Positions 6,613 through 56,264 of a stretch of 64,000 nt of DNA are shown here, in pieces. Numbering within the stretch: position 1 is the first letter of the stretch; each line of letters starts with the position of its first letter. Source of the stretch: Candidatus Aenigmatarchaeota archaeon (GTDB lineage: Archaea; Aenigmatarchaeota; Aenigmatarchaeia; QMZP01; QMZT01); assembly GCA_963726265.1 (NCBI GenBank), contig CAVSBQ010000002.1, positions 128,001 to 192,000 on the forward strand. Direction: 5' to 3'. The notes beneath the pieces are model-generated. The model did no database searches, was not told the origin of the DNA, and saw only the letters and a list, made by a program, of their open reading frames with translations. The translations under genes and the position numbers were made by a program.

Positions 6613-6737
6613 ACCCCCAATAAACCATTCGCCGATAAAACTAACATACTATATTTATCTATTTGTCTATCTACGTATTTAAAAATATTTGTATAGCACG
6701 CAGAAAACTTTAAAAAGCATGAAAGTATTAAATTACC

Positions 6738-6956
6738 ATGCCTGCAGAAGAATTAAGACAGGAAAAAGTGGAAAAACCGGAGACGATGACGACAACGATA
6801 GAGGTCGAAAAAGACCTGTTTCTCAGGTTCAAGGCGTTCTGCGTCCTCAACGAGATGACGATCTCCGGCGAGATAGAGAAGCTGCTGAGGAAGCGAGTCG
6901 AGCAGATGGCCAACAAGAGCGAGTCGACGATAGTCACTAAAGAAGCAAAAGAGTAA
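6738..6956 (+). CDS. Ribbon-helix-helix (CopG/Arc-like) DNA-binding protein
   Basis: TTTIEVEKDLFLRFKAFCVLNEMTISGEIEKLLR strand-helix-helix pattern; divergent from ftsZ. Confidence 0.7.
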   Translation: MPAEELRQEKVEKPETMTTTIEVEKDLFLRFKAFCVLNEMTISGEIEKLLRKRVEQMANKSESTIVTKEAKE

Positions 6957-7004
6957 TCTGATTCAGCAAACATTTACTTTTCTTTTATTTGCAGGTATCC
7001 AAAT

Positions 7005-7745
7005 ATGAAATATGGGAGAATGAGGCTTAATCGCTACCAGTTAAAAAGTATTGAAAACTTAACTAAAGATGGCAAATCTCTGCAGCACATATCAAATATC
7101 ACCGGCATAAAAAAGACGACTATTTACTACCACACCCGAAAACTCAAAGGAAAAAGTATACAGATGCCTATCATAAGATTCGATTCGGATGAAAAGCTGG
7201 GAGAAGCCATCGGTATATTTACAGGCGACGGTAGTTTATATTTTGAGCCAGGAAGATATCACTATCAGGTTAGGGTGCATTTCGGTATAAAAAACCTGAA
7301 TTATTTGAATCATGTTAAAGATTTATTTGATGCGTCATTTGGTAAAAAATTTCTTATAAAAATGGATGGCCCTAGAAAATTTGTTTTACAGATATATTCA
7401 AAGGAAATATTTGCTTTTTTCCATGATTTTCTCGATTTCGAAAGCCGAGATAAATCAAAAAGTGTGAGTTTGAAAGAGAAATTTTTGAAAAACGAGGTCT
7501 TTGCCAAAGGTTTTCTAAGAGGTTTGCTTGACACGGATGGTACGATATCGAAAACCAAGAACGGTATAAAAATAGCCTTTTATACTTCCTCTCACAAACT
7601 AGCTCAACAGATATCGTTTTTATTGAAAATGTTTGAAATAAGACATGGTATAACATCATCCAGAAAAGGCCAATATAATGTTTATATATTGAAAAAGGAT
7701 AACAATAGAATCGTCAAACTACTAAAACCATTTAAGGGCCGGTAG
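7005..7745 (+). CDS. Free-standing double-motif LAGLIDADG endonuclease with N-terminal HTH
   Basis: HTH SLQHISNITGIKKTTIYYH; motif 1 EAIGIFTGDG; motif 2 FLRGLLDTDG; no intein splicing motifs; AT-rich. Confidence 0.85.
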   Translation: MKYGRMRLNRYQLKSIENLTKDGKSLQHISNITGIKKTTIYYHTRKLKGKSIQMPIIRFDSDEKLGEAIGIFTGDGSLYFEPGRYHYQVRVHFGIKNLNYLNHVKDLFDASFGKKFLIKMDGPRKFVLQIYSKEIFAFFHDFLDFESRDKSKSVSLKEKFLKNEVFAKGFLRGLLDTDGTISKTKNGIKIAFYTSSHKLAQQISFLLKMFEIRHGITSSRKGQYNVYILKKDNNRIVKLLKPFKGR

Positions 7746-7845
7746 ATCAGCGGTAGATCGCCACCTTGGCATGGTGGAGAAACCTTGTTTCTGCAGAAAG
7801 GAAACATGGTTCCATAAGCCTCGGGTTCAAATCCCGACCGGTCCA
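7736..7845 (+). tRNA. tRNA-Ala(GGC) with 38-nt intron at 45/46 (7780-7817)
   Basis: Acceptor GGGCCGG/CCGGTCC+A; anticodon arm CCACC-TTGGCAT-GGTGG; T arm TCGGG-TTCAAAT-CCCGA; BHB with helix GTGG/CCAT, bulges AG|A and AA|G, inner helix AACC/GGTT. Confidence 0.92.
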
Positions 7846-7916
7846 TTGCTATTTTTTCATCTGGGATGAAATAGAATAAACAATAAAAAAAAGATTGAAC
7901 TCAAATGCCCAAAGCC

Positions 7917-7967
7917 TTAGCAGCATGAGCAACCGGAACTTGCCTTCTTGGACTTTTTCTTGACCAT
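7917..7967 (-). CDS. Putative 16-aa micro-protein MVKKKSKKASSGCSCC
   Basis: ATG...TAA, TTTTTAAG box 21 nt upstream, oligo-T tract downstream; not in ORF track. Confidence 0.4.
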   Translation of the reverse strand: MVKKKSKKASSGCSCC

Positions 7968-8035
7968 GAAAATATTGCGCGTGAGCGTCTTAAAAAGATT
8001 GCCTTCGGATTCCGAACTTACGGTCTACCTGCTGT

Positions 8036-39441: not shown

Positions 39442-39570
39442 GCCGATGTGGCTCAGTGGCTAGAGCACCGCGCTCATATCTTTTTGAGTTATGAGATTCG
39501 AGACATTGGTTGAAGCCGTGTCTGTGAGAGGGAAACGCGGGGGTCGTGGGTTCAATTCCCACCATCGGCA
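39442..39570 (+). tRNA. tRNA-Met(CAT), probably elongator, with ~56-nt anticodon-loop intron (39479-39534)
   Basis: Acceptor GCCGATG/CATCGGC+A; D stem GCTC/GAGC; anticodon stem CCGCG/CGCGG; T arm GTGGG-TTCAATT-CCCAC; BHB imperfect, so junction may shift by 1 nt. Confidence 0.88.
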
Positions 39571-39631: not shown

Positions 39632-40519
39632 ATGGTGAAGAAAAAGAAAGAGACGAGGGAGAAGGGCTACGAATCGCTGAAGGACAAGACCGGGCCCATC
39701 AGGAAGGAAAAGATAGACAAGGTCATACAGATGCAGGAAAAGAAGAGGATTGACGCGGTGACGCAGAAGAAGAAAGGCATACCCATAGCGTATGCCGCAC
39801 TGATAGTCATCGTCATCGCCGCGCTCGGCGCGGTCCTGCTTTTCGCGGTGCCGAGGTTCAACACCGCGCCCGTTAAGGCGGGGGACATGGTGCAGATAAT
39901 ATACGTCCTGAAGCTCCAGGACGGCTCTGTCTTCGAGACGGGCAACTTCTCGTTCAGGGTGAATTCGAGCGAAGTCATACAAGGCGTTGACGAGGCGATG
40001 ATAGGCATGAGAGTCGGCGACAAGAAAACAATCACCGTCACTCCGGACAAGGCGTATGGCTACTATGATGAAAGTAAAATTATGGATGTTCCTCTTGTCA
40101 ACGAGAGAAACATTACAATGGACATAGACATAGATGCTTTTAATGCATCTTTTGGTGAAATGCCAATTCTCAATAAAACCTACTATATAGAGGGCATGGA
40201 ATGGGACCTGAGAGTGATAGATATACAGAACAGCACAGTTAAACTTGAAGATGAAGTCCAGAATGGCACGACATTTGACATGAAAAACTACGCAGGTGAA
40301 ATTTACGCAAAGGGAACTGTTAACATAGAAGGTAATAAACTGATAATGACGACTCATCCTATAAAAGGAGGCATAATTTACGCCCCAACTTTATATGGTT
40401 ACGAAGCCGGCAAAATAGTTGACTTCAACGAAACACATATGAATCTTGACTTCAACAACCCGCTTGCGAGCAAGACGCTGACCTTCGAGATAACGCTGCT
40501 CAGCATGATTTCTTACTGA
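39632..40519 (+). CDS. Membrane-anchored FKBP-type peptidyl-prolyl isomerase with long insert-in-flap
   Basis: VIQGVDEAMIGMRVGDKK, PDKAYG, LDFNNPLASKTLTFEI. Confidence 0.85.
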   Translation: MVKKKKETREKGYESLKDKTGPIRKEKIDKVIQMQEKKRIDAVTQKKKGIPIAYAALIVIVIAALGAVLLFAVPRFNTAPVKAGDMVQIIYVLKLQDGSVFETGNFSFRVNSSEVIQGVDEAMIGMRVGDKKTITVTPDKAYGYYDESKIMDVPLVNERNITMDIDIDAFNASFGEMPILNKTYYIEGMEWDLRVIDIQNSTVKLEDEVQNGTTFDMKNYAGEIYAKGTVNIEGNKLIMTTHPIKGGIIYAPTLYGYEAGKIVDFNETHMNLDFNNPLASKTLTFEITLLSMISY

Positions 40520-40611
40520 AGCAGCGCTTCTTTTTATTTTTTCCTTTCTTTTGTTTGTTTTTAATTGAATATTTAAATAATTCTGTTTTATACTCACTTA
40601 TGAGTTAAAAA

Positions 40612-41526
40612 ATGGATTTTGGGCATGGAATTATTTACAGCCCTAAAACTGATAAATTTCATTACGTGGGAAATTTAGACGAATTGAAACTTAATGCACC
40701 ATTGACTGTTGTTGTTGAATTGCTCTATGACTGCAATTTATCATGTGGTTTTTGCATGAAATTGGATGATGTTAAAAGAATACCATCTTACGATGAAAGC
40801 GCATCTTATCTGGATAAACTTTCCTTTAATGACCATCCTATACGTACAGTAATATCGGGAGGAGAACCATTTCTCAGAAAGGATATTGAAAGGGTATTGC
40901 AACATGGGCATTCGAAAGGGCACATTCAAAATTTAGCTACCAATGGAATTCTTGTGAACCCCAATAAATCTTTGGTTGAATGTGTTAATGTTTTTGAAGT
41001 TGGGTTAGATGGTAATACATCTGAAACGTACAAGTCTGTCAGAGGTAGCGATGGATATGATGCAGTTGTTGCCAACATACAAAAGTTAACCGATTTGGGC
41101 GCAAACGTCAGGGTTACCTACTTATTGACAAAGAAAAATGCATCTTCCGCGAAGGAAATGCCTGAGCTATGCTCTAGGCTGGGTGTTTCAAAACTAAGGT
41201 TACAAAGATTTATTAGATATGGAAGAGGTGCAAAAAATTATCAGGAATTTGAGCTCAGTGACGAGGAATTACACAGGGTAGTTGAAGAAACCAAGGACGA
41301 TGCCAGCCGCTTTGGAATTGAATTACGAACTCCGCCAGCCAAACAGTACTATTATGGTGTTATTTTTATTACACCTCAAGGGGATATTATGTACAGAAAC
41401 GGAAGCGGAGATGAAGATAGTACACGTAGATTAGGTAACTTGAAAGAAACAGATTTGTCCGAAGTTTGGACGCCTGAAATGTCTGATGCGCATAAGAAGA
41501 TTATCTTTTTTCCAGATATGTTGTAG
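40612..41526 (+). CDS. Radical SAM protein, AT-rich
   Basis: CNLSCGFC, SGGEP, ATNG, GLDG. Confidence 0.88.
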   Translation: MDFGHGIIYSPKTDKFHYVGNLDELKLNAPLTVVVELLYDCNLSCGFCMKLDDVKRIPSYDESASYLDKLSFNDHPIRTVISGGEPFLRKDIERVLQHGHSKGHIQNLATNGILVNPNKSLVECVNVFEVGLDGNTSETYKSVRGSDGYDAVVANIQKLTDLGANVRVTYLLTKKNASSAKEMPELCSRLGVSKLRLQRFIRYGRGAKNYQEFELSDEELHRVVEETKDDASRFGIELRTPPAKQYYYGVIFITPQGDIMYRNGSGDEDSTRRLGNLKETDLSEVWTPEMSDAHKKIIFFPDML

Positions 41527-48618: not shown

Positions 48619-48737
48619 ATACCCACCTCTTTCGCTTTTTATGGAAAATTCAGTCTGATATCTAATTTACGGACAGTGTTTATAAAGTTTCCGAATTTAA
48701 GGCGCTGATATTTAAATCACGGCGTGCAAATTCAGCC

Positions 48738-49373
48738 ATGAGAAGGCTTTTTTCGCTCGATGCCGAAATCCTCGGCGAGGCGTGCGGCGTCTTCGCCGGC
48801 GACGGCGGCATCTACCATGCGGGCAGGAGCTACGCGCTCGAGGTAAGGTGCGCGCCTGACGACGCAGCGTATTACGAGGGCCATGTGAAGCCGCTCTTCG
48901 AGGAAGTCCTGAAGGCCAGGCTGAAAACGTGCAAAAGGTCATACCAGGGCGGCCATGCCGTATGCATCCGCTTCTGCGGGGCGCGGGCCATGAAAATTTT
49001 CCACGTCTTCCTCCAGTTCCCGCTCGGGAGGAAAGCGAACGCGCTACGCATGCCCAAGCTCGTCTTCAACAACCACGAATGCTGGAAAGCGTATGTGCGC
49101 GGCATGTTCGACTCGAGCGGCTCGCTATACCTCAGAAAAACTGCCGGAAAATACAGGAATCCCGTAATAGAAATTTCTTCGCCGTCCATCGCGCATCTGC
49201 TGCAGCTGAAGGAGATTCTGCGCGACATGGGCTTCGGCTTCTGGCTGGAAAAGGGGAACCGCAAGATACGTATCGCGGGCAGAAAGAACGTGGAAAGATT
49301 TTTTAAAGAGATAAACCCACATAATAATGCAAAACGGAAAAAGTTCGCTGAAATAATGCGGACGGGCAAATGA
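48738..49373 (+). CDS. Free-standing LAGLIDADG-family protein with degenerate second motif
   Basis: EACGVFAGDG and YVRGMFDSSG; host-like GC-rich codons; no intein motifs. Confidence 0.8.
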   Translation: MRRLFSLDAEILGEACGVFAGDGGIYHAGRSYALEVRCAPDDAAYYEGHVKPLFEEVLKARLKTCKRSYQGGHAVCIRFCGARAMKIFHVFLQFPLGRKANALRMPKLVFNNHECWKAYVRGMFDSSGSLYLRKTAGKYRNPVIEISSPSIAHLLQLKEILRDMGFGFWLEKGNRKIRIAGRKNVERFFKEINPHNNAKRKKFAEIMRTGK

Positions 49374-49385
49374 CGCAAAACAAAA

Positions 49386-49508
49386 GCTGAGATGGCCGAG
49401 TGGTTAAGGCGCAATAGCTTCCGGTGATTCGCGAGGGTTCCGGAAACTGCGCAAGGTTGCTAACCTTGTGTCCGAAAGGACGCGCAGGTTCGAATCCTGC
49501 TCTCAGCG
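49386..49508 (+). tRNA. tRNA-Ser(GCT) with 40-nt intron at 29/30 (49415-49454)
   Basis: Acceptor GCTGAGA/TCTCAGC+G; long variable arm GTCC-GAAA-GGAC; BHB helix GCGC/GCGC with bulges AA|T and AA|G; inner TTCCGG/CCGGAA. Confidence 0.92.
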
Positions 49509-56022: not shown

Positions 56023-56152
56023 AGGCTTAACAGGACCGGAAAATAAAGGATTTGTTTACTTCTTTTTATTGACTGATTTAGCCGCTGGACCGTAAACCAA
56101 AAACCCTTTTATTATATTCTAGTATATTATAGTAGAACATTTCGCTGGTCAT

Positions 56153-56264
56153 GCGCCGATAGTCTAGCCTGGTAGGACACGGGCTTCCCAAGCCTGTAAC
56201 CCGGGTTCAAAAGGCGAATGACGCGGATTTCATCCGCGTCCGTCTGAAGCTCCCGGTCGGCGCA
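56153..56264 (+). tRNA. tRNA-Gly(CCC) with 39-nt intron at 59/60 (56212-56250)
   Basis: Acceptor GCGCCGA/TCGGCGC+A; CGGGC-TTCCCAA-GCCTG; strict BHB with TTCA/TGAA helix, bulges AA|A and GC|T. Confidence 0.93.

Follow-up and report, generated by a model that had tools for sequence, protein, structure and literature searches.

The window analysed here, a stretch of 64,000 nucleotides (nt) of Candidatus Aenigmatarchaeota archaeon (GenBank assembly GCA_963726265.1, contig CAVSBQ010000002.1, positions 128,001 to 192,000 of the forward strand), contains a free-standing gene for a putative LAGLIDADG homing endonuclease, open reading frame (ORF) 1, whose stop codon lies inside an intron-bearing transfer RNA (tRNA) gene, tRNA-Ala(GGC). 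The genome that holds the window (1.13 Mb; G000 in the following) belongs to the same genus (g1, G000-G004) as G002, G003 and G004, and all the genomes compared are metagenome-assembled, incomplete bins. The locus consists of the following features:

6957..7019, plus strand: spacer standing in place of the usual upstream spacer of tRNA-Ala, with the A/T box TTTTATTT at 6983-6990
7005..7745, plus strand: ORF1, 246 amino acids (aa), with a three-helix, helix-turn-helix (HTH)-like N-terminus and a two-motif LAGLIDADG core; TAG stop at 7743-7745
7736..7845, plus strand: tRNA-Ala(GGC), exon 1 at 7736-7779 and exon 2 at 7818-7845; Rfam RF00005, 55.5 bits
7780..7817, plus strand: intron of tRNA-Ala, 38 nt at position 45/46, a relaxed bulge-helix-bulge (BHB)

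The G+C content (GC) across ORF1 is 0.33-0.38, compared with about 0.55 in the rest of the window. The conserved start of the gene is probably the ATG at 7020, because in the G003 orthologue the first ATG is followed by a stop. ORF1 matches the Pfam family LAGLIDADG_3 (PF14528; E 6.9e-16, 58.7 bits, cut-off 22.5), and weak Pfam matches to HTH domains cover residues 16-64. Its two motifs, GIFTGDGS and GLLDTDGT, both keep the acidic residue. An AlphaFold2 model built on an alignment of eight family members (mean predicted local distance difference test score, pLDDT, 87) has three helices at the N-terminus and, after them, two alpha-beta-beta-alpha-beta-beta-alpha halves. The top Foldseek matches of this model are I-DmoI chains (E 1.5e-9, template modelling score 0.76-0.78 by target length), and intein endonucleases, I-SceI, WhiA (rank 38, E 1.8e-7) and I-Tsp061I rank below them; a sequence search of the PDB with ORF1 returned nothing at E 0.01 or better. 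Motifs, fold and curated profile are therefore all those of a single-chain, two-motif LAGLIDADG homing endonuclease. Pfam LAGLIDADG_WhiA was also matched, and the NCBIfam WhiA model scored far under its own cut-off; ORF1 is not WhiA-like in that both acidic residues are present and the HTH-like domain is N-terminal, not C-terminal.

The final codons of ORF1, AAG GGC CGG TAG, occupy 7734-7745, which makes a 10-nt overlap with the tRNA gene, and the stop codon coincides with U8-A9-G10 of the tRNA. Upstream lies a 72-aa gene of the ribbon-helix-helix (RHH)-like type, ending at 6956, and it is at the stop codon of this gene that synteny with the ORF-less loci of G002 and G004 stops. In these two genomes the RHH-like gene and tRNA-Ala are separated by a spacer of 63-110 nt, the place of which is taken by ORF1; the A/T box at 6983-6990 is the probable promoter now driving ORF1. 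The possibility that ORF1 is intron-encoded, lying inside a BHB intron, was rejected, since a protein gene stands upstream and no copy of the tRNA-Ala 5' end was found there. A preliminary description of the window, drawn from its letters and reading frames, had reported an AT-rich frame with an HTH and a LAGLIDADG domain and both acidic motifs, free of any surrounding intein or intron, which reads 10 nt into tRNA-Ala to stop on tRNA positions 8-9-10, as well as a non-canonical intron at 45/46 of this tRNA; each of these points is confirmed by the profile matches, the flanking genes, the Rfam boundaries of the tRNA and the intron analysis that follows.

The tRNA-Ala gene has no encoded CCA, and its anticodon loop, TTGGCAT, gives the anticodon GGC. 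The boundaries of its intron are set by intron-less alleles in G018, G039 and G048, and a geometry script yields a BHB with the central helix GUGG/CCAU, the bulges AG|A and AA|G, the inner helix AACC/GGUU and a weak outer helix. A 4-bp central helix with two 3-nt bulges on opposite strands is found likewise in the introns of the tRNA-Ser and initiator tRNA-Met (tRNA-iMet) genes described below, and in all three the outer helices are weak or absent, which gives the relaxed form of the BHB. A group I intron was considered and rejected, for the intron has only 38 nt and BHB geometry, and an Rfam scan of the window at gathering score found no group I intron. The host encodes an EndA protein of 398 aa with one N-terminal and one catalytic Pfam domain, which matches over its full length chain 4fz2_A (E 2e-108), presumably the epsilon2 (three-unit) splicing endonuclease of ARMAN-2 with its broad specificity, which agrees with PMC3488258 and PMC3239211; by this match the host has a splicing endonuclease suited to non-canonical sites. 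Introns are very common in these genomes, being present in 22 of the 35 tRNAs called by ARAGORN. With default settings this program misses all three intron-bearing tRNAs of the window, and with the option -i the non-canonical ones are mis-assigned. The model RF00005 yields just 16-29 tRNAs per genome in the genus (G000-G004), and in these genomes many tRNA genes must escape detection on account of introns that are multiple or oddly placed.

Two members of the genus, G000 and G003, carry ORF1; in G002 and G004 none was found at the corresponding syntenic position. Between the two carriers, identity amounts to 93% in ORF1, 96.8% in the spacer and 99.1% in the tRNA with its intron, compared with 81.8% in the upstream flank; downstream of tRNA-Ala the two genomes share no homology. 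The ratio of nonsynonymous to synonymous substitutions (dN/dS) of ORF1 is 0.098 and its dS 0.289, as against a dS of 0.88 in the adjoining FtsZ gene and of 0.68 in the RHH gene. Because of this low dN/dS and this low dS in comparison with the neighbours, the block of spacer, ORF1 and intron-bearing tRNA is, judged from its sequence, functional and younger than the split of the two species. Furthermore, in contigs of another metagenomic study the upstream gene is joined to the start of the tRNA and ORF1 is absent, and another metagenome run contains pieces of ORF1 at 97-98% identity; a look for RNA runs covering 6700-8000 found none. Presence and absence at a conserved site, combined with an age below that of the flanks, are the marks of a mobile element.

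ORF1 is not an isolated case. In the 1.13-Mb genome, Pfam LAGLIDADG_3 is found in four places, namely three free-standing frames and one intein-like insert, the latter being an 888-aa frame with two LAGLIDADG_3 matches (G000:C2:846498-849989) that is presumably an intein-containing host protein. All three free-standing genes (ORF1, ORF2 and ORF3) lie directly 5' of intron-bearing tRNAs and on the same strand as these. We searched 61 genomes of the same order, of which 37 gave a match, and assembled 54 frames, comprising all rows with open frames below 450 aa together with ORF2 and ORF3; frames above 700 aa were left out as presumed inteins. A home-made tRNA detector, which requires a T-arm and a 7/7 acceptor stem, was used to look for co-oriented tRNAs starting from -30 to +18 nt relative to the ORF end. 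Such a tRNA was detected in 22 of the 54 frames and in none of the 54 in the mirror zone upstream. Five further loci (L012, L015, L047, L049 and L054), whose tRNAs contain T-loop or multiple introns, were recognised by eye, bringing the count to 27/54; a tRNA was confirmed by Rfam at 8 of the 20 loci submitted.

We have also examined a broad sample of 80 loci with one genome per species, which covers Woese-, Nano-, Pace-, Micr-, Iain- and Aenigmarchaeota, some Methanosarcinales and Hadarchaeota, and a few bacteria of the Candidate Phyla Radiation. The co-oriented layout occurs in 46 of these loci. The distribution of their offsets has its peaks at -9, with 9 loci, and at -14, with 14, which places the stops at tRNA positions 8-10 or 13-15. 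By comparison, only 58 of the 2122 frames of at least 150 aa in this genome (2.7%) end in the same way. Kin among the sampled loci are not independent, and the pattern extends over many tRNA identities and several phyla. The enrichment directly 5' of tRNAs that the preliminary description had put forward as a check of its proposal is thus present in both samples. Each protein subfamily is associated with one tRNA: Ala(GGC) in the family of ORF1, and Ser(GCU), Gln, Asp or iMet in others. The ORF1 subfamily, with HTH and LAGLIDADG domains, is found on tRNA-Ala(GGC) in a Woesearchaeote (L122), a member of the Nanoarchaeia (L123) and L128, and the junction in L122 matches that of ORF1, reading K-G-S/R-stop at U8-A9-G10. 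In a metagenome-assembled genome of the Woesearchaeota (L124), an ORF1-family frame reads through the entire tRNA gene, T-arm included, before it meets a stop. Full-text literature searches, with subscription journals outside their coverage, returned no description of LAGLIDADG genes abutting archaeal tRNA genes, and these genes apparently form a large, undescribed group in DPANN archaea.

Other arrangements exist beside this one. Eight relatives' ORFs (L025, L042, L048, L052, L028, L032, L055 and L024) converge on a tRNA and end in its 3' part, and the convergent layout was also seen in the broad sample (L144, L156, L164, L166 and L169). Convergent ORFs often take their TGA from the complement of the T-loop (GGATTTGAACC), and those of L052, L028 and L024 lie on tRNA-iMet. 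At least nine relatives' ORFs sit in introns of 16S or 23S ribosomal RNA (rRNA) genes; nucleases within 23S/16S rRNA genes in the classical intron-encoded arrangement were recorded in the same order at L034, L041, L043, L044, L050, L062, L051 and L056. In addition, 5S rRNA genes stand 0.3-1 kb from tRNA-linked LAGLIDADG ORFs at L010, L016, L015 and L032, the 5S match of L032 measuring 149 nt against a 120-position model.

From these observations we consider it fairly probable that ORF1 is a selfish and probably active LAGLIDADG gene of the I-DmoI type, one of a DPANN group that lodges between the promoter and the body of tRNA genes. The reading frames of this group would run into the tRNA as far as the first stop offered by its conserved sequence, here U8-A9-G10. 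The ORF would be transcribed from the tRNA promoter as a 5' leader of the pre-tRNA, from which the tRNA would be freed by RNase P and the intron by the epsilon2-type EndA. Since the stop codon lies inside the tRNA, cleavage by RNase P would leave an ORF message without a stop, which, as a speculation, might hold the level of the nuclease low. The enzyme would cut ORF-less alleles of the tRNA-Ala locus, and repair would copy the ORF together with the adjoining tRNA allele.

Several points weigh against this interpretation. Homing by ORF1 is something we infer from the pattern alone. ORF1 proper has only two known carriers, G000 and G003, which are kin, and its low dS could be partly compositional, given its GC of 33%. 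About half of the LAGLIDADG frames have no detected adjoining tRNA, some of them lying in rRNA introns and some being unexplained. The tRNA detections, intron positions and relic break points (see below) are home-made or hand-parsed. Finally, ORF2 has been retained under purifying selection since before the split of the genus in spite of a lost catalytic residue, which fits domestication better than selfish spread.

ORF2 and ORF3 extend the picture to two other tRNAs. Their features are as follows, ORF3 lying outside the window:

48679..48716, plus strand: region 5' of ORF2, with the TATA-like box TTTATAAAG at 48679-48687, the tRNA-Ser relic TTAAGGCGC at 48697-48705 and the A/T box ATTTAAA at 48710-48716
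48738..49373, plus strand: ORF2, 211 aa, motifs GDGG and DSSG, host-like GC
49386..49508, plus strand: tRNA-Ser(GCU), Rfam 45.1 bits; intron-less alleles in G004, G019 and G020
49415-49454, plus strand: intron of tRNA-Ser, a 40-nt BHB at the junction of D-arm and anticodon stem, worked out by hand with the geometry of the script
G000:C2:418640-419224 (L003:1189..1773): ORF3, 194 aa, AT-rich, motifs GDGY and DSEG, both acidic

The second motif of ORF2, DSSG, has lost its acidic residue, and this is true of all four genus members. The BHB of its tRNA-Ser neighbour has the central helix GCGC/GCGC and the bulges AA|U and AA|G, the boundaries being ambiguous by sequence within a repeated GCGCAA. 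Against its orthologues in the genus ORF2 has a dS of about 1.0 and a dN/dS between 0.06 and 0.27, also given as 0.18-0.23, similar to the flanking genes; the gene is long established and has stayed under selection although the acidic residue is lost. The preliminary description had regarded 48738-49508 as a recurrence of the ORF1 layout. This is right in so far as a LAGLIDADG gene lies there 5' of an intron-bearing tRNA; the end of ORF2 is, on the other hand, separated from the tRNA start by 12 nt, its GC is normal, its second motif is DSSG and the intron is located elsewhere in the tRNA. ORF3 overlaps a tRNA-iMet with a 22-nt intron at 7/8, whose BHB has the helix GCGG/CCGC and the bulges GG|A and AA|U. 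An 11-nt inverted repeat (TTATAAAATAT) flanks the whole ORF3 unit (G000:C2:418640-419303, L003:1139-1865). By eye, tRNA-iMet contains three introns in G003 (L047), four in G004 (L052) and, at a different site, one in G000.

A copy of the 5' part of the adjoining tRNA is found upstream of the ORF start in the sister families of Asp, Gln, Ser and iMet. The extent of these relics is as follows:

tRNA-Asp, L016 and L132: 22/22 nt
tRNA-Gln, L046: 24/26 nt
tRNA-Gln, L013: 13/13 nt
tRNA-Gln, L147: 22/22 nt
tRNA-iMet, L003 and L047: 12/12 nt
tRNA-Ser, Ser loci of G000, G002, G003, G004, G005, G009 and G010: 9-10 nt (TTAAGGCGC)

The relic upstream of ORF2 has 9 nt and corresponds to positions 19-27 of tRNA-Ser, and the whole upstream arrangement of ORF2 is repeated in G002, G003, G004, G005, G009 and G010. 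Upstream of ORF3, the 12-nt copy of the tRNA-iMet 5' end is intron-less and stands behind two TATA-like boxes. As controls the same tRNA was compared with the upstream regions of other loci, which gave a score of 8.5 vs 22 for L016; for Ser and Gln the controls are blurred, the relic being common to the family members. According to the hand parse the relics are intron-less: they continue through the point at which the small intron would sit and end a few nucleotides beyond it. This break falls near 26-28 in the Asp, Gln and Ser relics and at 12/13 in those of iMet, and is followed by the A/T box and the ORF. The small intron lies within about 6 nt of the relic break, and the iMet loci, both with the break at 12/13, differ in their introns (7/8 in G000, about 14/15 in G003). 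At about -26 to -38, where a tRNA promoter would be expected, the relics of iMet, L147 and L199 have kept a TATA-like box. No relic was found at the Ala locus, where the best local match scored 8.5 vs 10 for the controls and the resemblance of the spacer is weak.

The simplest reading that these relics suggest is that a cassette, consisting of the A/T box, the ORF and a replacement 5' part of the tRNA with a small intron, entered an intron-less tRNA gene behind its promoter. We also considered whether the ORF might be nested in one very large tRNA intron, the true 5' exon being the copy found upstream, and rejected this: the upstream copies continue beyond the position of the small intron and contain none, those of Ser and of Gln at L013 have no acceptor stem, and the genes downstream are whole and have good BHB introns. 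A split or permuted tRNA is ruled out by the same evidence. At L105 (G055:C16), a tRNA-Ser(GCU) is interrupted at 7/8 by a long intron, which holds a second copy of the 5' strand of the acceptor, and the DNA upstream of this gene resembles the C-terminal coding end of a Ser-family ORF, a place where the hidden Markov model found no ORF; this locus may be a decayed cassette.

In the sister families, then, a cassette would enter the tRNA gene, bring a 5' part with a BHB intron beside the break and leave an intron-less relic, and the intron would plausibly keep the regenerated gene from being a target itself. A broader proposal may be built on this and is put forward tentatively, as a possibility short of an expectation: in Micrarchaeota-like archaea, LAGLIDADG cassettes of a single gene would invade tRNA genes, the small BHB intron in the replacement 5' part would break the regenerated target, and repair would copy either the cassette or the intron alone, so that the nucleases would seed and move non-canonical introns and drive the extreme load of introns in these tRNA genes.

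Somewhat more doubtful is the proposal, close to that of the preliminary description, that ORF1 cuts intron-less tRNA-Ala(GGC) at or near 45/46, that the 38-nt intron gives immunity and that both spread together, seeding non-canonical introns. We have compared twelve tRNA-Ala(GGC) alleles, three of which are intron-less. ORF1 occurs only with the 45/46 intron (both carriers in the genus, G000 and G003, have it, and neither of the two non-carriers), the Ala introns of the ORF-less members being at 33/34 in G002 and at 37/38 in G004. Moreover, the introns of G000 and G003 differ by 1 nt in 38, compared with 18% in the flanks. Because introns are so frequent in these genomes, this co-occurrence is weak evidence, and the 45/46 intron is found without the ORF in G021, G029 and G050. 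Intact relatives of ORF1 lie on intron-less tRNA-Ala(GGC) at L122, which has the same stop, and at L123, and L128 has an intron at 37/38 only. In the broad sample, 16 of the 43 co-oriented tRNAs (class A) have 70-74 nt, a length that leaves no room for an intron, and adjoin intact ORFs; the second motif is present in 43/43 class-A ORFs, as the search pattern required, and GDG in 42/43. The Ala locus, moreover, is without the relic that marks the sister families.

At tRNA-Ser(GCU), five loci with the ORF have an intron and two to three do not, and three loci without the ORF have an intron and two do not; the presence of the ORF is thus not correlated with that of the intron. On the side of immunity, the only Ser ORFs to keep both acidic residues, those of G009 and G010, have an intron at the junction of D-arm and anticodon stem, and the Ser ORFs beside a tRNA-Ser without this intron (G004, G005 and G013) are all catalytically dead by motif; the proximity of intron and break in the relic-type loci, and the iMet pair with its shared break and different introns, point in the same direction. 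We conclude that on these gene arrangements the intron is not a general requirement, and that a role for it is possible in the relic-type cassettes found in this order. The 45/46 intron of tRNA-Ala is probably a co-travelling feature of unproven protective role that is not needed for protection. Of the unit of endonuclease, BHB intron and immunity envisaged in the preliminary description, the tRNA-tied ORF, the co-occurrence in the genus and the relics in intron-less genes stand, and the intact relatives on intron-less tRNA-Ala speak against a need for the intron in immunity. The correlation of ORF and intron at orthologous loci that it had called for holds for Ala within the genus, and fails for tRNA-Ser and in the three genomes that have the 45/46 intron without the ORF.

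It is unlikely that these LAGLIDADG proteins are domesticated, having ceased to be mobile nucleases and been kept by the host to bind DNA or RNA on behalf of the adjoining tRNA gene, either as WhiA-like regulators or as processing helpers. ORF2, with host GC, with its second acidic residue missing throughout the genus and with its low dN/dS at a dS of about 1, speaks for such a role, and WhiA is represented among the fold matches of ORF1 and among the Pfam matches. ORF1 itself, however, keeps both catalytic residues, has a foreign GC, is absent from two of the four genus members and is younger than its flanks, and its matches to the I-DmoI fold outrank those to WhiA; the families are patchy, as the matches in 37 of 61 genomes show, and dead copies or pseudogenes occur (L009 and L021). 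Least credible is a passive safe haven, in which ordinary mobile or decaying nuclease genes gather at tolerant, recombining tRNA flanks without any tRNA specificity: such flanks are established hot spots of recombination and integration, but each subfamily is faithful to one tRNA identity across genera and phyla, the junctions are base-exact with offsets of -9 and -14, and strand and side are non-random, as the empty upstream mirror zone of the 54 frames indicates.

The preferred reading, that of a selfish I-DmoI-type gene lodged between tRNA promoter and tRNA body, has parallels in several known systems. I-DmoI and I-Tsp061I, both archaeal, are single-chain, two-motif LAGLIDADG homing endonucleases whose genes lie in BHB introns of rRNA genes. 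ORF1 shares with them the fold, the two acidic motifs and the archaeal host, and its relatives are found in 16S/23S rRNA introns of the same order; ORF1 differs in standing outside any intron, between a promoter and a tRNA gene that it overlaps by 10 nt, and in its extra N-terminal HTH-like domain. The archaeal group I introns described by Nawrocki et al. 2018 (PMC6125680) are all located in rRNA genes, and LAGLIDADG ORFs are present in 21 of the 39. Collaborative homing is reported (PMC6083498) for the free-standing F-CphI beside the intron-containing psbA of cyanophage S-PM2. There, as here, a free-standing nuclease gene adjoins a gene with an ORF-less intron, and nuclease and intron are here co-inherited as a block within the genus. 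The present intron is, in contrast, a protein-spliced BHB intron and not a self-splicing group I intron, and the nuclease is of another family; the intact family members on intron-less tRNAs mean that immunity by the intron is not general here.

In T4-like phages, SegB lies in a tRNA gene cluster. The free-standing Seg/Mob endonucleases of these phages are reported to spread by 'intronless homing' (for mobE, PMC2790892). They resemble the genes studied here in being free-standing and, on the reading preferred here, in cutting near their own insertion point with co-conversion of the flanks, and differ in being GIY-YIG or HNH enzymes of phages, whereas the present ones are LAGLIDADG enzymes of archaeal chromosomes with a base-exact fusion to the tRNA 5' end. 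In fungal mitochondria, inserted endonuclease genes come with a second copy of the host-gene part that they displace. The cassettes of the Asp, Gln, Ser and iMet families would similarly bring a replacement part and leave a dead copy, with the difference that here the host gene is a tRNA, its 5' part is replaced and the regenerated copy has a BHB intron by the break. Randau and Söll reportedly proposed in 2008 that introns and splits of tRNA genes protect against integrative elements targeting these genes. Such elements are comparable in their conserved tRNA target and in the partial duplication of the tRNA at insertion, and introns may disrupt their target; the present loci, by contrast, have no integrase, one nuclease gene of 0.6-1 kb makes up the whole element, and the 5' part is duplicated behind the original promoter.

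The window contains further tRNA genes. A third intron-bearing tRNA, with the anticodon CAU and a 58-nt intron at the canonical site, lies at 39442-39570 and has no adjoining nuclease gene; just 3' of it, at 40000-41500, is an island of 33-44% GC with a 304-aa frame rich in Cys motifs (40612-41526). At 56152-56226 ARAGORN calls a 75-nt tRNA-Gly(CCC), which is not listed by the Rfam tRNA model at gathering score, whether the window or the whole genome is scanned.

How non-canonical archaeal tRNA introns are gained is an open question, for which transposition of introns and protection from integrating elements have been proposed. The loci described here provide a concrete system for it, in which nuclease genes are tied to one tRNA each, alleles with and without the gene and with and without the intron are available, and the relics fix the insertion point to within a few bases. 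Regardless of the mechanism, tRNA-abutting ORFs account for part of the trouble with gene calling and tRNA detection in DPANN genomes, and the loci offer new predicted I-DmoI-like enzymes with tRNA-gene targets. If the nucleases were found to cut at the relic breaks, homing endonucleases would be directly linked to the gain of tRNA introns.

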